NCBI GenBank assembly: GCA_002898895.1
Contig: BEHS01000001.1
Coordinates: forward strand, 7,106 to 71,105
DNA: 64,000 nt
Reading direction: 5' to 3'
Source: a bacterium HR16
Lineage (GTDB): Bacteria; Armatimonadota; HRBIN16
Of this stretch, positions 164 to 55,196 are shown piece by piece. Each line of letters begins with the position of its first letter. Positions within the stretch are counted from its first letter, which is position 1. Under the pieces are notes generated by a model. It did no database searches and was not told the origin of the DNA. It worked only from the letters and a program-made list of their open reading frames with translations. The position numbers and the translations under genes were made by a program.

Positions 164-565
164 TCACCCCTGTGCCGAGCGACCGTAAGCCGGACGCTCT
201 GGCTCCACGATGTAGCGCGATAGCGTGATGGTCAGCTGGTACGTCACCACCTGCAGGAACAGGATGATGCCGTAGCAGACCTGCGATACCAGACGGCTCC
301 ACTGGCGGCGCAGCCGCTGGGCAAAAGGCAACCGTTGCTCGGCGATAATCTCGGCGAGCATCGGCTGAAACTCTCGCCACAGGTCAATCCGGGGCTCCGG
401 CGCTTCCAGCTGCCGGCAGAACTCCACAAACCGGCGCAGTTCCTGATATTCCCGAGAGCACGCTTCGCAAGCGTACAGGTGCTGCAGCACCTGTTCCCGC
501 TCTGTCTGGCTCAGCTGCTCGTCAATCAGCGCGCTCAGTCGTTCCTGTACCTCTTCGCAACGCAT
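164..565 (-). CDS. zinc-finger (ZAS/zf-HC2-like) anti-sigma factor
   Basis: Immediately follows the ECF sigma gene with a 2-nt gap. HxxxCxxC motif (HLYACEACSREY). C-terminal hydrophobic segment. Confidence 0.6.
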   Translation of the reverse strand: MRCEEVQERLSALIDEQLSQTEREQVLQHLYACEACSREYQELRRFVEFCRQLEAPEPRIDLWREFQPMLAEIIAEQRLPFAQRLRRQWSRLVSQVCYGIILFLQVVTYQLTITLSRYIVEPERPAYGRSAQG

Positions 566-567
566 GG

Positions 568-1215
568 TTACTCACCTACCCCCTGCCAGTAAGTTCGATA
601 ATAAGGTTCAAAAAGACGTTTAAAAGCCAATCGGGCACGATGCAAGCGCGATTTCACGTTCGCAATCGTCAAGCCGGTGATGTGACTGATTTCCTCATAG
701 GAGAGCTGCTCGAAGTCACGTAGCACCAGCATTGTCCGGTAGTCTTCGGGCAAGCGCGCCAGCACCTCACGCACTTTCCGTTGCAGTTCCTCGCGCTCCA
801 CGTGTGCCTGTAAATCCTCGTCCGACACCGGCTCATAACCACCGTTTTCGCGCTCCGCCATCTCTTCCAGCGAATCGGTCCTCTCTCGCTTCATGTCGCG
901 CAGGCGATTACAGCACAGGTTGTGCGCGATACGCAGTAGCCACGCGCGGAAGCTGCTGTCTCCGCGGAAGGAGCGGATGTTTTTGAACGCCCGGATAAAC
1001 ACCTCCTGCGTCAGGTCGTGCGCTTCCTCACCGGGCACCATCCGGTACACCACACTGTATACCAGCCTCATGTACTTCTGGTACAGCTTCTCAAAGGCGG
1101 ACGAGTCGCCGTCGCTGCATCGGCGTACCAGCAAGATGTCTTCGTCCAGTGGCGCGATCATGTTGAACGTAATCTCTTGCGTTGCCTCCGTGGGCGTGCC
1201 AGCTGTCAGTACCAT
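568..1215 (-). CDS. ECF-type RNA polymerase sigma-70 factor
   Basis: Region-2 and region-4 signatures (FEKLYQKYMRLVYSVVYRMV; SYEEISHITGLTIANVKSRLHRAR). Paired with the downstream anti-sigma. Confidence 0.8.
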   Translation of the reverse strand: MVLTAGTPTEATQEITFNMIAPLDEDILLVRRCSDGDSSAFEKLYQKYMRLVYSVVYRMVPGEEAHDLTQEVFIRAFKNIRSFRGDSSFRAWLLRIAHNLCCNRLRDMKRERTDSLEEMAERENGGYEPVSDEDLQAHVEREELQRKVREVLARLPEDYRTMLVLRDFEQLSYEEISHITGLTIANVKSRLHRARLAFKRLFEPYYRTYWQGVGE

Positions 1216-1272
1216 TCGTCACCTTCCCCTTGCCAGGCGTTGTGGAAGGCGCGAATGCGCGCCTTCCGATTT

Positions 1273-2199
1273 TTACCGTCCGGGCGCAGGTGGACCGGGA
1301 GGAGGTCCTCCCATCATCTGCTGGAACATCTGCATCCCCTGCTCCATCAGCATCCTTCGCTCTTCGGGCGACATGTTCATGAACATGCGCAACCCTTCTT
1401 GCATCATCTGCATCCGCAGTGACGGGTCCATGTTCATGAACATCTGGATACCCATGCGCATCGCCCTCTGGCGCTCTTCCGGCGACATCTGCATGAACAA
1501 CTGCATTCTCTGCTGCTCCAGCGCCAGGAAGTCCTCTGCGCGTACTTGTCCCTGCCTGCCACGTTGCCCCGCTTGCTGGGCAACCATCGGTTGCTGGTAA
1601 AACACCACGTATACCGGGCGCGTCTTAAACGCCGGAACCATCTCGTCCAGCTGCTGTTCGAAGTCCGACGATACGGTCACGTTGCGCACGAAGGAGGTAA
1701 TCCGGTTACCGGTAGTATCTGCAACAATCAGCCCCTGCGCTTCGAGGTTTACAATGGAGCGCACCCAGTTGACCAGCGTCTCAGAAGCGGGCAACTCCAT
1801 ATCCGCACGCAGGTACACCTTGCGCCAGACTACGCCGGGTATCTGTTTGACGACCGCATCCAGCGCAGACTGAGCGTCCTTTGCCTGCGCGGGCGGCGTC
1901 ACACGTCCCTGCAACAGCGGGTCCACCACCACCTGCAGTCGAAACCGCTGGGCGATGTCTGCCAGAACCTGTCGCACGTCACTACCGGTTTGCCGCGCTT
2001 GCTGAGGCAGTTGCTGCTGGAACTGTGCTGCAGGCGGCTGAAAATCGGCGGGCGGCGGTGGCGGCATCACCGGCTCCGCCGGCACATCCACTGGCGGTTC
2101 CGGTGGGGGTTCAGGCTCACCCGGGGCGGGCTGTGCCCAGAGCGGGATGAGGGCATACACAGATAACGCCACGATAGCCGCTATCGTTCTCCACCACAT
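1273..2199 (-). CDS. secreted protein with Pro-rich linker and C-terminal Met-rich repeats (MFMNMSPEERR-like)
   Basis: N-terminal signal/TM, PEPPPEPP stretch, then 4-5 repeats of MQMFMNM..SPEER. First gene of the sigma/anti-sigma operon. Confidence 0.6.
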   Translation of the reverse strand: MWWRTIAAIVALSVYALIPLWAQPAPGEPEPPPEPPVDVPAEPVMPPPPPADFQPPAAQFQQQLPQQARQTGSDVRQVLADIAQRFRLQVVVDPLLQGRVTPPAQAKDAQSALDAVVKQIPGVVWRKVYLRADMELPASETLVNWVRSIVNLEAQGLIVADTTGNRITSFVRNVTVSSDFEQQLDEMVPAFKTRPVYVVFYQQPMVAQQAGQRGRQGQVRAEDFLALEQQRMQLFMQMSPEERQRAMRMGIQMFMNMDPSLRMQMMQEGLRMFMNMSPEERRMLMEQGMQMFQQMMGGPPPGPPAPGR

Positions 2200-2420: not shown

Positions 2421-4445
2421 GTGATGCCAAGAGCTATTACCATCGACGACCTGTTTCGGCTCCGGCTGGTCAGCGATGCGCAGATTGCGCCCGATGGTGA
2501 ACGGGTGGTCTGTGTGGTGAAGAACGCTGATCGCGAGAAGAACAAATACTTCAGCCATCTGTACCTGTGTGACCTGCGCACGCGCGAGGTGCGCCAGTTC
2601 ACCAGCGGCGAGGTCGCCGATAGCCAGCCACGCTGGTCCCCGGACGGCAAGACCATCGCCTTTGTCAGCAATCGCCAGAAGCCCAAATCACAGATATTCC
2701 TGATACCGGTGGACGGCGGCGAGGCGCGTGCACTCACCTCGCTGGAGGAAGGTAGCATCGGCGAAATCGCCTGGTCGCCGGACGGCACGAAGATAACGTT
2801 TACCTTCCGCCTCACGCCCGAGCAGTGGCGCGAACAGGTGGTGAAAGAGCGGAAGGAGAAAGGCCTGTCTACCCCGCCCCGTATCATCACCCGTCCGTTT
2901 TACCGGCTGGACGGCGCTGGCTACTTCGACGGCGAGTACTATCAGGTGTGGGTAGCGGACGCCCGTACCGGCGAAGCAAAGCAACTTACGAACGAAGCGA
3001 CATCCTGCGGTAGCCTGAGCTGGTCCCCGGACAGCAGCAAGGTTGCCTTTGTGTGCAACCGCAGTGAAGACCCCGACCTGAACCCCAATCTCGAGGATAT
3101 CTGGCTGGTCCCTGCCGGAGGCGGCGACCTGCAACGGGTAGAGACTCCGAAGGGACCCAAGGGCGGACTCGCTTTCTCGCCCGATGGCACGTGCATCGCC
3201 TACATCGGACATACGAAAGTAGAGGACATCTGGGGTGTTACGAATGACCACCTGTGGATAGCCGACCTGAGCAACGGCACAGCGCGAGACATCATGGAGG
3301 GATTTGACCGTTCGCTGGGCAACCTGACGCTCAGCGATATGCGCGACGTGGGCGGAGGTAGCCGTCCAACGTGGACGCCTGACGGCAAACGGCTGCTGTT
3401 CCTCGCCAGCGACAGGGGCAGCACGAAGCTCTACAGCATCTCCGCCGACGGAGGCGAACCCGTTGCTCTGCGTGGAGAGCGTGCAGACATCACAACGTTC
3501 TCTCTCAGCGCGGACGGCAAGTGCCTCGCATGGTGCGAAGGCACTGCTACGCAACCGCATGAGGTATTCACCGGCACGCTGGAAGACGGGGCGATACAAA
3601 ACGCCAGCGCCGTTACCTGCTTCAATGCCGAGTGGTTGGCGGAAGTGCAGGTACAGGCTCCCGAAGAGTTTACCTGTACCTCGCCCGAGGGCAACGAGGT
3701 GCATGGATGGATTCTGCATCCCCCCGACTTTGACCCGGCGAAGAAATATCCCCTCATCCTGGAGATACATGGTGGACCGCACGCGCAGTACGGCTGGGTA
3801 TTTTTCCACGAGTTCCAGCTGCTGGCGGCGCAGGGCTACGTGGTACTGTACACCAACCCGCGCGGCAGCAAGGGATATGGCGAGGCGCACACGGCGGCGA
3901 TTAAAGGCACATGGGGCGGACCCGACTACACCGACCTGATGGCAGCGGTAGATGCGCTGCTGGCACGCGGGTATATTGACGAGACGCGCATGGGCGTGAT
4001 GGGCGGTTCCTATGGCGGCTACATGACCAACTGGGTGGTGTCGCATACCGACCGCTTCCGCGCCGCCATCACCGACCGCAGCGTGGTTAACCTGCACAGC
4101 ATGGCGGGAACCTGCGACTTCCCCCTGCTACCCGGCGGCGACTACTTCCGGGGCAACGCCTGGGCAGAACCGCAAGACCTGTGGGAGCACTCGCCGCTGA
4201 AGTACGCGGATAATATCCACACCCCGTTGCTTATCATCCATAGCGAGGGCGACCTGCGCTGCCCTATCGAGCAAGCAGAGCAGCTGTTCGCCGCGTTGAA
4301 GGTGCAAAAGAAGGAAGCGGTGCTGGTGCGCTATCCGCTGGAGAGCAGCCATGGGCTATCCCGTTCCGGTCCGCCCGACCTGCGCGTGCACCGACTGCAA
4401 CAGATTGTGGAGTGGTGGAAGAGGTATCTGGCGCAGGATGGGTAG
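2421..4445 (+). CDS. S9 family serine peptidase (prolyl oligopeptidase/acylaminoacyl-peptidase-like) with N-terminal beta-propeller
   Basis: TolB-like WSPDG repeats in the N-terminal half. C-terminal catalytic GGSYGGYMT nucleophile elbow plus conserved D/H region. Confidence 0.85.
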   Translation: MMPRAITIDDLFRLRLVSDAQIAPDGERVVCVVKNADREKNKYFSHLYLCDLRTREVRQFTSGEVADSQPRWSPDGKTIAFVSNRQKPKSQIFLIPVDGGEARALTSLEEGSIGEIAWSPDGTKITFTFRLTPEQWREQVVKERKEKGLSTPPRIITRPFYRLDGAGYFDGEYYQVWVADARTGEAKQLTNEATSCGSLSWSPDSSKVAFVCNRSEDPDLNPNLEDIWLVPAGGGDLQRVETPKGPKGGLAFSPDGTCIAYIGHTKVEDIWGVTNDHLWIADLSNGTARDIMEGFDRSLGNLTLSDMRDVGGGSRPTWTPDGKRLLFLASDRGSTKLYSISADGGEPVALRGERADITTFSLSADGKCLAWCEGTATQPHEVFTGTLEDGAIQNASAVTCFNAEWLAEVQVQAPEEFTCTSPEGNEVHGWILHPPDFDPAKKYPLILEIHGGPHAQYGWVFFHEFQLLAAQGYVVLYTNPRGSKGYGEAHTAAIKGTWGGPDYTDLMAAVDALLARGYIDETRMGVMGGSYGGYMTNWVVSHTDRFRAAITDRSVVNLHSMAGTCDFPLLPGGDYFRGNAWAEPQDLWEHSPLKYADNIHTPLLIIHSEGDLRCPIEQAEQLFAALKVQKKEAVLVRYPLESSHGLSRSGPPDLRVHRLQQIVEWWKRYLAQDG

Positions 4446-4488
4446 TCTATCCGACGAATCAAAAACTGATGAAAAGGAGGTGACTTTC

Positions 4489-4869
4489 ATGCGCATCCAG
4501 CAAACTGTGGCGTGTCTGCTGGCGGTGCTTCTCTTGCTGAACATCGCGGCGCAGGCGCAAAAGAGTGCCAAACCCAAGGCGGACAAGAACGTTCCCAAGT
4601 ACGTCTGCCTGATGTGTAAGGTGGGGGCAGATAAACAGGGGAAATGCCCCATCTGCAACCTGCCGATGGCAAAGGCAGGGGTATACGTGTGCACCGAGTG
4701 CGGTGCCATGGCGGATAAAAAGGGCGACTGCCCACACTGCAAAAAGCCGATGGTCAAGCTGTCCAGCCTGGCGAAGAAGTGCAAAGTGTGTGGCTATTAC
4801 AGCGACAAGAACAAGAAAGAGTGTCCGGTGTGCGAGTACCGTAAGAAGATGAAATCGAAGAAGCCTTAG
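4489..4869 (+). CDS. secreted small protein with three Cys4 zinc-ribbon-like repeats (CxxC-x9-CPxC-x-PM)
   Basis: RBS AAAGGAGG 8 nt upstream of the ATG. Signal peptide ending AQAQ. Triplicated C-x2-C ... C-P-x-C unit. Confidence 0.55.
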   Translation: MRIQQTVACLLAVLLLLNIAAQAQKSAKPKADKNVPKYVCLMCKVGADKQGKCPICNLPMAKAGVYVCTECGAMADKKGDCPHCKKPMVKLSSLAKKCKVCGYYSDKNKKECPVCEYRKKMKSKKP

Positions 4870-10533: not shown

Positions 10534-11432
10534 CCTCGCGCGAGGCAGTAGACGCCGTACGCCGAATACTGGGTGTACGACGGGCTGGACACACCGGCAC
10601 GCTGGACCCCGGTGCGGAAGGGGTGTTGCTCATCTGTCTGGGCAAAGCCACCCGCCTGAACGAGTTTCTGCAATGGCTCCCCAAAACCTATCGCGCGACG
10701 ATGGTGCTGGGTGTGCAGACCGATACGCAGGACATGGAAGGGAAGGTGATTGCCAGCACCGATGCCGGCGGTATTACGCGCGAGATGCTGGAAGCTGTGC
10801 TGCCCCGCTTCACGGGAGAGATCGAGCAGATTCCGCCCATGCACTCGGCGGTACACCACGAGGGAAGGCGGCTGTACGAGCTTGCTCGAGAAGGGAAGGT
10901 GGTGTCCAGAGAGGCTCGTAAGGTGCAGGTATATCGTCTGGAGCTATTGCGCTTCTCGCCCGGCGAACACCCTGAAGCGGAAATCGAGGTGGAGTGTTCC
11001 ACCGGAACCTATATCCGCACCCTGTGCGCGGACATCGGTGACGCGCTGGGCGCAGGAGGAGCCATGAAGTCGTTGGTGCGCACCGCAATCGGTGCCTTCC
11101 GCGTTGAAAACGCGGTGACCCTTCAGCAGCTGGAAGCGGGCGACGCTGCAGACCATCTCATCCCGATGGCGAAGGCGGTGGAGGATATTCTTCCTGTCTG
11201 GACACCTCATCCTCGCGTGCTGCGCCTGTTTCGGCTGGGTAGATTCGTGAAGCCGAAACCTTTTCCACCTGTGCCTCTGCCGGAAGATAAACCTCCTTAC
11301 ATCGCCGTACTGGATGCGGCAGGCGATTTGTTCGCCATCGCAACCGTACGCCGTGATGAGGTATGGCCCTACAAGGTCTTCGGTGAGCATGTGCTGTATC
11401 ACCCACGTAGCGTGGAGGAGGATTTGGGGTGA
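10494..11432 (+). CDS. truB: tRNA pseudouridine(55) synthase TruB
   Basis: LYKPAGMTSREAVD...GHTGTLDP catalytic Asp motif and PUA-like C-terminus. True start may be a later in-frame codon. Confidence 0.9.
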   Translation: MDALLNLYKPAGMTSREAVDAVRRILGVRRAGHTGTLDPGAEGVLLICLGKATRLNEFLQWLPKTYRATMVLGVQTDTQDMEGKVIASTDAGGITREMLEAVLPRFTGEIEQIPPMHSAVHHEGRRLYELAREGKVVSREARKVQVYRLELLRFSPGEHPEAEIEVECSTGTYIRTLCADIGDALGAGGAMKSLVRTAIGAFRVENAVTLQQLEAGDAADHLIPMAKAVEDILPVWTPHPRVLRLFRLGRFVKPKPFPPVPLPEDKPPYIAVLDAAGDLFAIATVRRDEVWPYKVFGEHVLYHPRSVEEDLG

Positions 11433-12349
11433 GAGGCTCCGACCCGCGCCCGTTGAGCCTGCGTGCCAGCGTCGTGACCATCGGCTCTTTCGACGGGGTG
11501 CACCGGGGACATCAGGCAATTATTCGTGTGGCTATCCAGCGCGCGCAGGAACTGCATATACCTGCTGTTGCGGTCACCTTTGACCGCCATCCACAGGAAG
11601 CCATTCAACCCGATAACGCGCCACCCTATTTAACCACCCTGACCAGTCGTCTGCGCCTGTTACTGAACACCGGGCTTCACGATGTGCTGGTTCTACGCTT
11701 CGACCGCGAGTTTTCCTCACTGCCTCCCGAAGCGTTTTTGCACTCGGTTCTGCAGAAGCACCTGAACGCGCGTCGTATCGTGGTGGGCAGGGATTTCCGC
11801 TTCGGGCATCGGCGGATGGGCAGTGTAGACTATTTACGGGAAGTGCAGGCGCGTTTCGGCTTCGAGGTGGAGGACGTACCGGACGTGCTGTACCGCGGCG
11901 AGCGCATCAGCAGTAGCCGAATCCGCCAGGCGTTGCTGGACGGCGAAGTGCAGGAGGCATCGGCTATGCTGGGCAGGGCGTATGTACTGGAGGGGATAGT
12001 GGTGCGCGGGAAACAGCTGGGCAGGAAACTGGGCTATCCGACGGTAAACCTGAGCCTGCGCGCGCCCCAGCTGGTACCGAAAGATGGAATCTACGCAGGA
12101 AAACTACTACACCCGCGTACGGGCAACAGCTACACGGCGGCGATTAGCATCGGCGTGCGCCCTACCGTGGACGGCACGAAGCGCACCATCGAAGCGTACC
12201 TGCTTGGTTTTTCAGGCAGTCTGTATGGTGAGGAGGTGCACCTTGCCTTCTTTCACCGCCTGCGTGACGAACGCAAGTTCGAGTCTTTACAGGCGCTGAG
12301 GGCGCAGATGGATAAAGACGTGCAACAGGTGGTGGAGCTGATGGGGTAA
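11429..12349 (+). CDS. ribF: bifunctional riboflavin kinase / FAD synthetase
   Basis: GSFDGVHRGHQ nucleotidyltransferase motif. Riboflavin-kinase C-terminal domain. Confidence 0.9.
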   Translation: MRGSDPRPLSLRASVVTIGSFDGVHRGHQAIIRVAIQRAQELHIPAVAVTFDRHPQEAIQPDNAPPYLTTLTSRLRLLLNTGLHDVLVLRFDREFSSLPPEAFLHSVLQKHLNARRIVVGRDFRFGHRRMGSVDYLREVQARFGFEVEDVPDVLYRGERISSSRIRQALLDGEVQEASAMLGRAYVLEGIVVRGKQLGRKLGYPTVNLSLRAPQLVPKDGIYAGKLLHPRTGNSYTAAISIGVRPTVDGTKRTIEAYLLGFSGSLYGEEVHLAFFHRLRDERKFESLQALRAQMDKDVQQVVELMG

Positions 12350-12363
12350 GAGTTCACCACATG

Positions 12364-12388
12364 GAGGGCGAGGCTCCGTCCGAGCCGA
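12364..12388. repeat. family-2 hairpin repeat (GGAGGGCGAGGCTCCGTCCGAGCCG), solo copy
   Basis: Same 25-mer at 46616-46640 and inverted at 62025-62052. GGCTC/GAGCC stem. Confidence 0.55.
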
Positions 12389-12409
12389 CATACGGGCAAG
12401 AATAAAGGG

Positions 12410-14935
12410 GTGATAAGCATGAGAAAGCAACCTGTCTTCGTCGTTTTACTATACATACTTTTCGTTTCTCTGTCCTGGGGGCAAGCACAAAAGCCCCCTG
12501 CTGCGCCTCCGCAGCTCTCCGAGAAGGACAAAAAGATTATCGCCCTGTTTGAAAAGGCGGTCTCGCTGCAGCGAGCAGGCAAGGCAAAGGAAGCAATTGC
12601 GGCGTATCAGGAGCTGCTCAATCTGCAACCCAACACGCCGATGGCGCGTTTCAATCTGGGCGAGATTTACATGGCGCAGGGGGACTTCTCAGCCGCCGAG
12701 GCGCAGTTCCGGCAAGTGGTAAAAGCCCTGCCTAAACTGCCGGAGGGCTATTTCCGGCTTGCAACCGCCCTTGCCCAGCAAAAGAAATGGCGTGAGGCGA
12801 CACAGATGGCACAGAAGGGCGTGCAGCTTGCCCCCAAAAGCGCGGAAGGGCATTTCGTGCTGGGAGTAATCTACCTCTCTCAGAAGCGTTTTGCGGAGGC
12901 GGAGAAAAGCCTCCTGCGCAGCAGCCAGCTGAACCCCAAAGCGACCAACACGCAGTTTAACCTTGCTTACGTGTACCTGCAGATGCGCCAGCCGCGCAAG
13001 GCTATACCCATTCTGAAAAAGATTACCGAGCAGGAGCCGAAAAACCCCGCGGCGTGGGCGGGGCTGGGAATGGCATGCGACATTGCGGGTGATTTACTCC
13101 AAGCACGCGATGCCTACCGCCGCGCTCTGTCTTTGCAACCCCAGAACGAGGACCTGACCCTGCGCCTGGCGATGGTACTGGGGCGCATGAATCAGCATAA
13201 GGAGTCACTGCAGCTGCTGGAGAGGTTGGTGAAGGCACACCCCAACGATGCCGGACTGTGGTTTGCCATCGGGCAGACGCATTTCAACATGCGGCAGTAT
13301 CGCGAGGCGGAAATCGCCTTTCGCAAGGTATTGCAATCGCAGCCGAAAAACGTGGCCGCGCAGGCAAACCTTGCGTTGTGTCTGCTGAATCAGAACCAGC
13401 TGGACAACGCCAAGCGTGAGTACGAAAAGCTGCGCCAGATGCGCCCGCAGGACGTGAACGCGCTGATGGGGCTGGCATACATTGCCGAAATGCAGGGACG
13501 CTGGGATGATGCCCTGAAGGAGTATGAGCAGTGGCAAAAGCAGGAGCCAAACAACCCCGAGCCGTTGCTGCGCAGTGCTCGTGTATGGCTACAGCGGGAT
13601 AAGGTCCCGCAGGCGATCAGCGTGCTGGAGAAGGCAGAGCGTCAGTTCCCCAGTAACGCGGGCGTGCTGATGCAGGTGGCAGATGTGCTGGCGCAGGCGA
13701 ATCAGTATGAAGAGGCACTCAAACGCTACCAGCGCATTCTGAAAATCGACTCCAAACATCTGGGCGCGCTGAACGGCGCAGGGCTGATGTGTGCTCGACT
13801 GAAGCGCAGCAAGGACGCGCTCGGCTACTACCGGCAGGTGCTGGATATTCAGCCCGACAACTCACAGGTGCTGTTCTTCATTGCCGACCTGTACGAGCAG
13901 GATAAAGACTACGCCGGGCTGGCAACCGAGATGCGTCGGGTGGTGCAGAGGAACCCCAAAAACGTGGTGGCGTGGTGGCGGCTGTCCATCGCTCTGGAGC
14001 GGCAAAACAAGATGGATGAAGCGCTTGCAGCGCTTCGGGAGATCGAGAAGCTGACACCCAACGATATGTTCTATCTGGTCAACATCCCCCGCCTGCTGGA
14101 CAATCAGGGTAAAACCGAGGAGGCGGCGAAAGAGTACCGCAAGCTGATTGCCCGCCAGCGCAAGGAGCCGCGCCTTTACGGGATGCTTGCCGCCCTGTAC
14201 AAAAAACATAACCGCCCCGACGAGGCGATAGCGGTGTACCAAGAGGGAATCAAGGAGCTGCCCAAGGACACCTACCTGCGCACTCTGCTGGCACGCACCT
14301 ACGAAGAACAGCAAAAGTGGGAAGAGGCAAAGCAGGTTTACGGACAGATTCTGCAGGTCGCGCCCACCGAACCCGGGGCATACAGCGGTTTGCAGAGGTG
14401 TCTTGTGCAACTGAAGCAAGAAGAGCAGTTCTCCGCTCTGGTTATGCCCATTATCGAACGCGATGCTTCGAATGAGGCGGCGGTGCGCGCTCTGGCGAAC
14501 TTTTACCGCGACCGGGGCAAACCCGCCGATGGAATACCACTTCTGGCTTCGCTATCGCAGAAGCACCCGAAACAGAAGGGCATATGGTTGACGCTGGCTC
14601 AGCTACAGCAGGAGGCAGGCAAAGAGGAGGACGCCCTCAAGAGCTACGAGCAGGTACTGCGGATAGACGGCACCGACCTGCAGGCGCTGCGCAGTATCGC
14701 GCAGATACATGAGAAGCGCAACGAGATCCTCAAAGCCGCAGGCATCTACGAGCGCATTCTGGCGGGCTATCCGCAGGACATCCCTACCCGCCTGCGTCTG
14801 GCGGGGATGTACGAGCAGGCAGGGCAAAAGCAGAAAGCTATCGAGCAGTATCGCGAGGTGCTCAAGCGCGATGCGAACAACACTATCGCGAAGGAGAGCC
14901 TGCAGAGATTAGGAGCCTCTTCTGCAGGAGGATAG
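12410..14935 (+). CDS. secreted tetratricopeptide (TPR) repeat protein
   Basis: Signal peptide followed by about 20 consecutive 34-residue TPR units. RBS AAAGGGGTG. Confidence 0.8.
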   Translation: MISMRKQPVFVVLLYILFVSLSWGQAQKPPAAPPQLSEKDKKIIALFEKAVSLQRAGKAKEAIAAYQELLNLQPNTPMARFNLGEIYMAQGDFSAAEAQFRQVVKALPKLPEGYFRLATALAQQKKWREATQMAQKGVQLAPKSAEGHFVLGVIYLSQKRFAEAEKSLLRSSQLNPKATNTQFNLAYVYLQMRQPRKAIPILKKITEQEPKNPAAWAGLGMACDIAGDLLQARDAYRRALSLQPQNEDLTLRLAMVLGRMNQHKESLQLLERLVKAHPNDAGLWFAIGQTHFNMRQYREAEIAFRKVLQSQPKNVAAQANLALCLLNQNQLDNAKREYEKLRQMRPQDVNALMGLAYIAEMQGRWDDALKEYEQWQKQEPNNPEPLLRSARVWLQRDKVPQAISVLEKAERQFPSNAGVLMQVADVLAQANQYEEALKRYQRILKIDSKHLGALNGAGLMCARLKRSKDALGYYRQVLDIQPDNSQVLFFIADLYEQDKDYAGLATEMRRVVQRNPKNVVAWWRLSIALERQNKMDEALAALREIEKLTPNDMFYLVNIPRLLDNQGKTEEAAKEYRKLIARQRKEPRLYGMLAALYKKHNRPDEAIAVYQEGIKELPKDTYLRTLLARTYEEQQKWEEAKQVYGQILQVAPTEPGAYSGLQRCLVQLKQEEQFSALVMPIIERDASNEAAVRALANFYRDRGKPADGIPLLASLSQKHPKQKGIWLTLAQLQQEAGKEEDALKSYEQVLRIDGTDLQALRSIAQIHEKRNEILKAAGIYERILAGYPQDIPTRLRLAGMYEQAGQKQKAIEQYREVLKRDANNTIAKESLQRLGASSAGG

Positions 14936-54590: not shown

Positions 54591-55196
54591 TTACCAACTC
54601 TCCACCTCCACGACGGTGGAGCGGAGTGGCACCCACTTTGATTCCACTTGCTGGCTGAGACGCAGGATGTTCACGCGCTTGCGCGCGGTACTTGGGGCAT
54701 CAAGGGATGCCGGAGGATTATGCACCTCGCAAATGCACACCACAACCCGGTCTCCCATTCTGGCGACCCTCTTCGCAAATCGATACTCCTCAGGAACAGG
54801 CATGTCCTCACTTTCCACGCACCACTGGTAGGTGTTGACACGTTGCAAGGGCAACCCTGCATAGGTAAAAGGGTCTATCCAGCCGAAATAGCCCGGGCAA
54901 TGGAATACCCCATCGTCCTTCACGTACTGCCTGCGAAACTGTTCAAACTGAGAGAAAGAAGGTACGCCCAGCTGCCAGTATTCCATCTCTTGCCCGGAGA
55001 CGGCATCCGCCCCGTTATAGTCTTGCCGGTAGAGGGCGAGAGCCATTCCAATTTGCCTCAGGTTGGAGAGACACGTGGTGACCTTGGAGCGTTCTCTGAC
55101 GGTGTGGAATGCTGCCAGCAAAATACCTGCGAGCACCCCGATAATAGCAACCACGATAAGCAGTTCTAAGACGGTAAATGCCCCCGATCGCTTCAT
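54591..55196 (-). CDS. DUF1559-type protein with prepilin-type N-terminal cleavage/methylation domain
   Basis: GAFTVLELLIVVAIIGVLAGILL prepilin motif. RBS GGAGAG then ATG at 55196. Confidence 0.7.
   Translation of the reverse strand: MKRSGAFTVLELLIVVAIIGVLAGILLAAFHTVRERSKVTTCLSNLRQIGMALALYRQDYNGADAVSGQEMEYWQLGVPSFSQFEQFRRQYVKDDGVFHCPGYFGWIDPFTYAGLPLQRVNTYQWCVESEDMPVPEEYRFAKRVARMGDRVVVCICEVHNPPASLDAPSTARKRVNILRLSQQVESKWVPLRSTVVEVESW

Follow-up and report, generated by a model that had tools for sequence, protein, structure and literature searches.

How should a sigma factor operon be read when its first gene encodes a secreted protein with a methionine-rich tail: as a sensor that reports to the sigma factor, or as something that the sigma factor produces? 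The question is raised by a locus at one end of a 64,000-nucleotide stretch of DNA (hereafter the window) from the uncultured thermophilic Armatimonadota organism "bacterium HR16" (the anti-sigma factor is identical to HRbin16_00009 of that organism, and close relatives of all operon genes come from hot-spring metagenome-assembled genomes of Armatimonadota/Chthonomonadia). A preliminary description of this DNA had proposed that the secreted protein (gene 1), a sigma factor of the extracytoplasmic function (ECF) type and a zinc-binding anti-sigma (ZAS) factor form a periplasmic metal or redox stress module, with gene 1 as the likely signal-sensing partner of the other two. The operon that we observe has four genes and runs in the order promoter, gene 1, hairpin, sigma, anti-sigma, NfeD (Table 1); these parts and the sequence in which they come, the footprint of the promoter and a conserved sigma–anti-sigma–NfeD triad are all directly observed. 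The explanation that we favor, and to which we give about an even chance, is an autoregulated ECF envelope- or membrane-stress module in which sensing would fall to the anti-sigma–NfeD pair and gene 1 would be a periplasmic output.

The open reading frame (ORF) coordinates agree exactly with the three packed minus-strand genes described earlier, separated by gaps of 57 nt (1216–1272, gene 1 to sigma) and 2 nt (566–567, sigma to anti-sigma). The fourth gene, the ECF-type promoter before gene 1 and the conserved hairpin after it had not been listed. The ATG of the fourth gene overlaps the anti-sigma stop codon (TGATG) at position 164, coupling the two genes translationally, and its 54 codons inside the window share 94.5% identity with the first part of a 226-aa ORF in locus L001 (96% identical). 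The product of that ORF has the membrane domain and C-terminal OB domain of an NfeD protein (NfeD_membrane, PF24961, 51.4 bits against a cutoff of 26; OB domain, PF01957, 35 bits against 29.1), with five clear hydrophobic segments, the last of them followed by a stretch of positive charge. This charge distribution agrees with the cytoplasmic location published for the OB domain, which in the flotillin system binds a helical region of flotillin (PMC11222466). All four genes are syntenic in nine of nine close loci; at the identities concerned (at least 70%), this synteny could be mere descent.

Table 1. Features of the gene 1–sigma–anti-sigma–NfeD operon, ordered by window position.
Feature	Positions	Strand	Remarks
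NfeD-family membrane protein, first 54 codons	1–164	−	Gene runs past the window edge
Anti-sigma factor, 133 aa	164–565	−	ORF list and Pfam
Predicted ECF (group IV) sigma factor, 215 aa	568–1215	−	ORF list and Pfam
GC-rich hairpin	1244–1267	−	GGAAGGCGCG-CATT-CGCGCCTTCC, 10-bp stem, 5 nt after gene 1 stop
Gene 1, secreted protein, 308 aa	1273–2199	−	ORF list
Met-rich four-helix tail of gene 1	1309–1539	−	aa 221–297
STN/secretin-N0-like alpha/beta domain of gene 1	1597–1992	−	aa ~70–201
Pro-rich linker of gene 1		−	Residues 23–69
Signal peptide of gene 1		−	Residues 1–22, begins MWWRTIAAIVALSVYALIPLWA/QP (…IPLWA/QP), without lipobox Cys
Shine–Dalgarno GAGGAGG of gene 1	2210–2216	−	Invariant block GGAAACGAGGAGGTCG, 10 nt before ATG at 2199–2197
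ECF-type promoter GCAAC-N18-GTCTAA	2234–2262	−	Ends 34 nt before gene 1 start codon
Invariant GGGTACAAT box	2311–2319	−	~50 nt upstream of ECF promoter; 9/9 aligned upstream regions

A homolog search with the anti-sigma factor returned only relatives at least 74% identical, and distant orthologs were therefore reached through the sigma factor, ten homologs of which (44–54% identity, loci L025–L034) make up the distant set. In all ten loci sigma is followed by a small anti-sigma (111–143 aa) and then by an NfeD-type membrane protein, and as judged from this gene order the conserved module is sigma plus anti-sigma plus NfeD. The NfeD partner itself varies: besides the short form we find the long NfeD1b with a protease-like N-domain (L028, L029, L033), the membrane domain alone (L030, L034) and, in L026 (5996–7231), a fusion of NfeD_membrane to PspA/IM30, which points to a link between the module and membrane stress. 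Neither L001 nor any of the ten distant loci has an SPFH gene beside NfeD. The open-access literature yielded no link between NfeD and the control of ECF anti-sigma factors (ECF group catalogues may list such a context in their supplements), and a search for an ECF classification covering Armatimonadetes returned nothing relevant.

Two subsets of the distant loci have features of their own. In L028 (6701–8358), L029 (6675–8527) and L033 (6735–8466), the anti-sigma has no zf-HC2 match and the NfeD is of the NfeD1b form, an arrangement in which proteolysis by NfeD may control the anti-sigma; the three loci are flanked by a PDDEXK_1 gene downstream and by a PDZ/radical-SAM DUF512 gene upstream. 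In L026 (1421–3448), L030 (3825–5820) and L034 (3845–5820), a STAS-domain protein and two Pfam-less genes (~200 and ~270–285 aa) precede sigma on the same strand, and may be an alternative accessory set for the same core module.

The two regulators in the window are of familiar kinds. The 215-aa protein is, by its domain profiles, an ECF (group IV) sigma factor, with matches to Sigma70_r2 (PF04542, E=4.4e-21) and Sigma70_r4_2 (PF08281, E=1.6e-17), regions sigma-2 and sigma-4 only, and 120.1 bits against TIGR02937 (sigma70-ECF, cutoff 42.9); its nearest equivalogs are SigW- and RpoE-like, all scoring under their cutoffs. The anti-sigma matches zf-HC2 in its N-terminal domain at 34.5 bits (cutoff 22.2) and carries C3 and H29-x3-C33-x2-C36, so that its earlier assignment as a ZAS-like protein with an HxxxCxxC motif was sound: the 133-aa protein has both the H-x3-C-x2-C motif and the upstream Cys of the ZAS family. 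The spacing from the first Cys to the His (26) equals that of RsrA, and the score against the RsrA equivalog (TIGR03988) is 31.2 bits, under its cutoff of 62.5; relatives are annotated as RsiW by the Joint Genome Institute (JGI). Zinc ligands are present in six of the eight anti-sigmas of the group that were aligned, and all four are lost in L028 and L029 (the members of the NfeD1b subset that the alignment covered, L033 lying outside it). Since some members have lost the ligands, the zinc site appears to be structural and dispensable, and a ZAS redox switch would not be the common mechanism of the group.

The C-terminal part of the anti-sigma bears directly on what could be sensed through it. 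A moderately hydrophobic helix (aa ~96–115) reaches a 19-residue Kyte–Doolittle maximum of 1.62, borderline for a transmembrane segment, and the corresponding maxima are 0.47–1.49 in most relatives and 1.68 in L029. Beyond this segment there are at most 18 residues, poorly conserved, and the protein thus has neither the clear transmembrane helix nor the extracytoplasmic domain of the RsiW/RseA type. With a borderline segment and so short an extension, the anti-sigma would have essentially no periplasmic part, may not span the membrane at all, and would offer little for a periplasmic partner to contact.

Transcription appears to start ahead of gene 1, as expected of the leading gene of the unit that the preliminary description had outlined: it is gene 1, and not sigma, that the conserved ECF-type promoter precedes. 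An alignment of the upstream regions of nine loci gives a phylogenetic footprint of an invariant GAGCGCAACTTTT, 13 variable nt and an invariant GGTGTCTAATAAG. The motif GCAAC-N18-GTCTAA occurs once in the window (0 expected), precedes gene 1 in nine of nine close loci, and is missing from all ten loci in which the gene 1 homolog has no sigma neighbor. Each of 11 upstream regions (the window and the ten distant loci, the latter with N17) contains a single copy of the relaxed form GCAAC-N17/18-[GT]TC, against a chance rate of 1.35% per region; the copy stands directly before sigma in eight of the distant loci and before an STN-family gene in L025 and L032. The locus would accordingly have, as predicted from these motifs, the autoregulatory AAC/GTC-type promoter and co-transcribed anti-sigma characteristic of ECF sigma factors. 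The GGGTACAAT box further upstream may be a second, housekeeping −10 element (TACAAT) for basal transcription of gene 1; a sigma-70 consensus scan found no full promoter. A search of the window for further copies of the promoter, as would mark a regulon, returned with strict patterns only the operon's own site. A loose match at 54851 was at chance level and was discarded as a regulon member. The exact promoter (GCAAC TTTT N13 GGTGTCTAA) gave five matches in a metagenome collection, all on unrelated low-GC contigs; as these contigs lack operon homologs, that scan is uninformative.

The 57-nt gap between gene 1 and sigma contains the hairpin and the Shine–Dalgarno sequence of sigma, and no promoter. 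The hairpin is kept in ten of ten sequences, with a consensus energy of ~−20 kcal/mol and a z-score of −4.0 relative to shuffled sequences, and shows one compensatory AU-to-GC pair (L004, L005) together with G-U variants. The operon strand carries no U-tract. A classical intrinsic terminator was considered and rejected, the sole T-run being on the opposite strand and not conserved.

Gene 1 does encode what had been described, a signal-peptide protein with a Met-rich repeat C-terminus, and contains no Cys and no His along its whole length. An AlphaFold2 (AF2) model built from 85 sequences (mean predicted local distance difference test score, pLDDT, 83.7) shows both the central domain and the tail confidently folded, and supersedes a poor model from 17 sequences (pLDDT 60.6). 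By fold (beta-alpha-beta-beta-alpha-beta) and by sequence profile, the central domain belongs to the STN/secretin-N0 superfamily, its top structural neighbors being the periplasmic C-domains of FecR/PupR and the signaling domains of the FecA/PupB transducers; four members of the gene 1 family have FecR_C matches. Two outcomes that the preliminary description had regarded as fatal to its proposal, an enzyme-like central domain and a tail missing from orthologs, did not materialize: the domain is a non-enzyme STN/N0 fold and the Met-rich tail is kept.

Homology searches place gene 1 in an unnamed and undescribed family of ~300 clusters (305 at E≤1e-3), mostly encoded as stand-alone genes, whose members appear to be secreted proteins with an STN/N0 domain and a weakly DUF3106-like helical tail. 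Gene 1 itself scores 18.3 bits against DUF3106 (PF11304), below the cutoff of 24.3, and 17 of 85 family members match weakly (best 1.1e-5), so that a remote relatedness is possible; a literature search on DUF3106 found nothing relevant and no function on record. The kinship that had been proposed with the LTxxQ group (CpxP/Spy/ZraP; PF07813, PF13801) did not hold up in either sequence or fold: gene 1 has no Pfam match at E≤1 to LTXXQ or Metal_resist (one of 85 family members matches the latter weakly), and a structure search with the tail found no neighbor, Spy and CpxP included. The proposed likeness to CopA/CusF/PcoC-type proteins fared no better, there being no CopC or CusF match at E≤1 in the same scan. 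Some family members of 450–550 aa (P0038, P0042, P0044 and others) have two modules and end in a conserved LPxMAGMMAVWFPRxAKE motif that is not seen in single-module proteins and may act at the C-terminus as an anchor or as a signal for sorting. In gene 1, an (E/P)-rich stretch, EPEPPPEPPVDVPAEPVMPPPPP, directly follows the signal peptide (residues 23–47; 2059–2133, minus strand); it resembles a rigid Pro-rich TonB spacer and is confined to the close clade, distant homologs being without it.

The tail contains 20 Met in 77 residues (26%, as against 2.3% in the remainder of the protein), with nine MxM and six MxxxM motifs. It folds into four helices (221–237, 240–256, 259–275 and 278–295; pLDDT 91–94), each N-capped by S/D-P-E/S-E/L-R, and reads MQLFMQM-SPEERQ-RAMRMGIQMFMNM-DPSLR-MQMMQEGLRMFMNM-SPEERR-MLMEQGMQMFQQMMGG, with GIQMFMNM before DPSLR, LRMFMNM before SPEERR, and GMQMFQQMMGG. 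The repeat pattern reported earlier thus stands, as four Met-rich helices, and the quoted strings need correction: the sequence is IQMFMNM rather than MQMFMNM, and SPEER occurs only twice, DPSLR being a third variant. Met makes up 19–27% of the tail in all close relatives, 15–26% in relatives of ~30% identity and 20–30% in one subfamily; across the whole family, the richest 70-residue window has from 2 to 22 Met. What is conserved at the tail positions is a helical repeat shared with family members that are not Met-rich. Because Met exchanges with Leu, Phe, Trp, Ile and Val across the family and is spread over a wide arc of each (weakly amphipathic) helix, the methionines are best understood as hydrophobic positions of a folded helical repeat, many of them probably exposed. 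Such a tail is closer to a "methionine bristle" surface than to a copper tract of the disordered Met/His/Asp kind, and its Met enrichment is in our view a characteristic of the subfamily and not a device for sensing metals.

Whether gene 1 belongs with sigma at all can be judged from its relatives. In ten Chthonomonadales genomes, the surroundings of equally Met-rich homologs (~30% identical) differ, and their flanks contain no sigma. In L025 and L032, from a Capsulimonadales-like lineage, a gene 1 family member (hhalign 99%, E=2.5e-18; hmmsearch E=3.8e-25) is inserted between promoter and sigma, being only ~22% identical and having just 7–8% Met in its tail. A Met-rich tail and linkage to sigma thus occur independently of each other. 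A gene 1 relative precedes sigma in this one lineage besides the clade of the window, and eight of the ten distant triads are without such a gene; the promoter-proximal position of an STN-family gene in two lineages nevertheless argues for a real functional tie to sigma. That gene 1 is functionally unrelated to the module, its adjacency being synteny inherited within one narrow clade, is for this reason a highly improbable account. The high identity of the close loci, the stand-alone nature of most family members and the strong hairpin between gene 1 and sigma would fit it; the placing of the sole ECF-type promoter before gene 1, with the following gap promoter-free, and the recurrence of the arrangement in a second lineage with such divergent homologs speak against it.

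How these parts could work together is best described from the membrane outward. On the reading that we favor, the zinc-finger anti-sigma would hold sigma inactive, with its short hydrophobic C-terminal helix anchored on, or under the control of, the polytopic NfeD. By analogy, and judging from gene overlap and synteny, this helix would take the place that an SPFH partner would otherwise occupy on NfeD. A perturbation of membrane or envelope would be perceived in or at the membrane by this pair, as the proposed tie between helix and NfeD and the cytoplasmic OB domain would have it, and as the PspA-fused and protease-bearing NfeD variants hint. The role of signal-sensing partner, formerly given to gene 1, would then pass to NfeD, which is the invariant partner in ten of ten distant loci and faces an anti-sigma with so few residues beyond its borderline segment. 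Released sigma would transcribe its own operon from the promoter before gene 1; with this promoter ahead of it and a stable hairpin behind it, gene 1 would be the first and probably the most abundant product. In the periplasm, its STN/N0 domain would dock to an envelope partner, and the Met-rich four-helix tail could serve as a pliable hydrophobic, incidentally oxidizable surface for binding hydrophobic or non-native clients; gene 1 may also feed back on the system. In our reading, then, gene 1 is an effector or output of the system rather than its primary sensor.

Several observations weigh against this account. NfeD is assigned as the anti-sigma's partner from synteny and gene overlap. The extreme, conserved Met enrichment (26%) of the clade is left unexplained by a purely hydrophobic role, and the single compensatory pair of the hairpin comes from two closely related sequences, so that the hairpin could be a stabilizer rather than an attenuator. 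The periplasmic modules to which the STN fold is structurally closest are, moreover, ones that signal to ECF anti-sigma factors, and the negative regulators RseB and CpxP are encoded in operons that they control; on these two grounds, a role for gene 1 as sensor or co-regulator is possible.

Of the alternatives that center on the tail, the earlier proposal, that it binds Cu(I)/Ag(I) or senses redox and signals to the ZAS anti-sigma, is in our judgment very unlikely. It can draw on the density of MxM and MxxxM motifs, on the conservation of the tail in orthologs, on the lack of Cys and His (which would fit Cu(I)/Ag(I) sites formed by Met only), on the HxxxCxxC motif of the anti-sigma and on a secreted Cys-rich CxxC-repeat protein encoded 2.2 kb away. 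The proposal is undercut by the failure to find homology to the known Met-rich Cu(I)/Ag(I) proteins (CopC/PcoC, CusF, CopA/PcoA), copper-resistance motifs in the 64 kb or kinship with Metal_resist or LTXXQ; by methionines that sit at exchangeable hydrophobic positions of a confidently folded four-helix unit, with no flexible loop; and by an anti-sigma that exposes almost nothing to the periplasm, has zinc ligands that its group can dispense with and scores far under the RsrA cutoff. A metal- or redox-responsive module also sits poorly with Met-poor sigma-linked homologs in L025 and L032 and Met-rich ones elsewhere without sigma. A motif scan of the 64 kb (crude, and saying nothing of the rest of the genome) found no copper-efflux motif of the P-type (CPx) ATPase kind, and none of a multicopper oxidase, MsrA/B or msrP/msrQ. 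The same scan bears on a second reading, unlikely in our view, in which the tail is a sink: hypochlorite or peroxide would sacrificially oxidize exposed methionines of a sigma-induced periplasmic protein, and a periplasmic methionine sulfoxide reductase (Msr) would then reduce them again, in parallel with SigF/NrsF–MrpX–YedYZ. There is precedent in Azospira suillum, where a periplasmic 20%-Met protein is under ECF control (PMC4436054), and Met oxidation is reported to matter for the periplasmic chaperone Spy as well (PMC12503329). Gene 1 likewise combines a 26%-Met tail, secretion and an ECF-type promoter directly upstream, and the wide arc of Met on its helices should leave many of them solvent-exposed. 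The sink reading must then contend with the missing Msr motifs, with a 308-aa protein that has a folded docking domain where a small charged peptide would be expected, with a helical repeat common to family members that are not Met-rich, and with the low Met content of the sigma-linked homologs of the other lineage.

The STN domain suggests a different role, in which gene 1 acts as a split co-anti-sigma of FecR- or RseB-like kind: the domain would bind the anti-sigma tail or a loop of NfeD and shield it from proteolysis; titration or damage of the gene 1 protein would set off regulated proteolysis and so free sigma. Such an assembly would be akin to a FecR-type anti-sigma factor after autocleavage, with its two fragments kept together non-covalently. 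The identity of the best structural neighbors (FecR-like/PupR domains and the transducer signaling domains that bind them), the FecR_C matches within the family, the negative-feedback logic of a gene lying inside the operon that it would regulate and the same promoter-proximal place in two lineages all favor this idea, which we nonetheless consider distinctly unlikely: the anti-sigma's hydrophobic segment, borderline in the window, falls clearly below the threshold in most group members, the short tail past it is not conserved, most distant triads do without a gene 1 relative, and the STN/N0 fold serves in the periplasm as an all-purpose docking module. A further reading, which we regard as doubtful to much the same degree, would make NfeD, normally a flotillin or stomatin partner, a dedicated membrane sensor or tether (in the NfeD1b form, a protease) for a minimal anti-sigma, into which, in two lineages, a free periplasmic STN protein feeds envelope information as a kind of "soluble" cell-surface signaling; in the HR16 clade, the helical domain of that protein would have become a sensor of oxidation or metals based on methionine, and the whole would be an undescribed ECF architecture.

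Genes around the operon complete the picture of the locus. Divergent from it on the plus strand (2421–4445) lies an S9 prolyl-oligopeptidase/acylaminoacyl-peptidase gene with an N-terminal PD40 beta-propeller (Peptidase_S9 E=1.9e-54), which keeps its place beside the operon in most close loci; its product has no evident signal peptide. Just after it (4351–4869, plus strand) is the gene for a 172-aa protein, possibly with an internal start at MRIQQTVACLLAVLLLLNIAAQA (signal peptide), which carries three C-x2-C...C-P-x-C repeats (YVCLMCK...CPICNLPM, YVCTECG...CPHCKKPM, CKVCGY...CPVCEY) and a Lys-rich tail. This is the CxxC-repeat protein mentioned above; its Pfam zinc-ribbon matches are weak only, and it resembles a secreted zinc- or metal-ribbon protein. 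Beyond the left edge of the window, L001 has a heat-shock cluster (10704–14588) on the opposite strand ~1 kb past the NfeD gene, in which a MerR/HspR-like regulator, DnaJ, Hsp20 and DnaK were identified by eye from the ORFs.

Set beside known systems, a pair of ECF sigma and zf-HC2 anti-sigma is commonplace; the coupling to NfeD and the unnamed family of STN plus Met-rich helices go beyond the routine. In RpoE-RseA-RseB of E. coli and SigW-RsiW of B. subtilis, as here, an autoregulated ECF sigma with its anti-sigma encoded immediately downstream uses a promoter of the AAC...GTC/TCTAA type, these sigma factors give the best NCBIfam similarities of the window sigma, and RsiW has an HxxxCxxC motif too. 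The accessory gene rseB lies in the same operon as its sigma factor, and NfeD genes are found within the sigma-W regulon. Unlike in those systems, the equivalog scores of the window sigma are under their cutoffs, the 133-aa anti-sigma has no extracytoplasmic domain, NfeD is coupled to it and an STN gene comes before sigma. FecA/PupB-FecR/PupR-FecI/PupI signaling differs in that the STN domain of the window is a free secreted protein and the sigma is SigW/RpoE-like and not FecI-like; we found no adjacent TonB-dependent transducer and no FecR-type anti-sigma, the one present being a zf-HC2 protein without a periplasmic domain. DUF3106 and LTxxQ proteins share with gene 1 the secreted helical-hairpin repeats and helix caps like [LM][ST]PE[EQ][RQ], and are set apart from it by the profile scores given above.

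The SigF-NrsF/MrpX/YedYZ (MsrPQ) system of Azospira suillum (PMC4436054) is alike in having a signal-peptide, Met-rich periplasmic protein under an ECF-dependent promoter (a predicted one in the window). MrpX, however, is a small, largely unstructured peptide built almost wholly from Met and charged residues, and its gene accompanies that of its reductase, whereas the Met-rich part of gene 1 is a conserved four-helix domain fused to STN, in a window where the crude scan saw no Msr motif; NrsF is polytopic and not a ZAS protein, and the sigma/anti-sigma pair of the window is thus of another type. The Met-rich subfamily would offer a model for periplasmic Met-rich helical surfaces, be it in client binding, oxidant buffering or soft-metal binding. 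With NfeD–flotillin/stomatin operons (PMC11222466), the locus shares the architecture of membrane plus C-terminal OB domain and the tight coupling of the NfeD gene to that of its presumed partner; here that partner is a small anti-sigma, no SPFH gene is adjacent in L001 or the ten distant loci, and some loci have a PspA/IM30 fusion or the NfeD1b protease domain. The NfeD link thus suggests how an anti-sigma factor without a sensory domain might be regulated, and a possible function for "orphan" NfeD proteins that have no flotillin partner.

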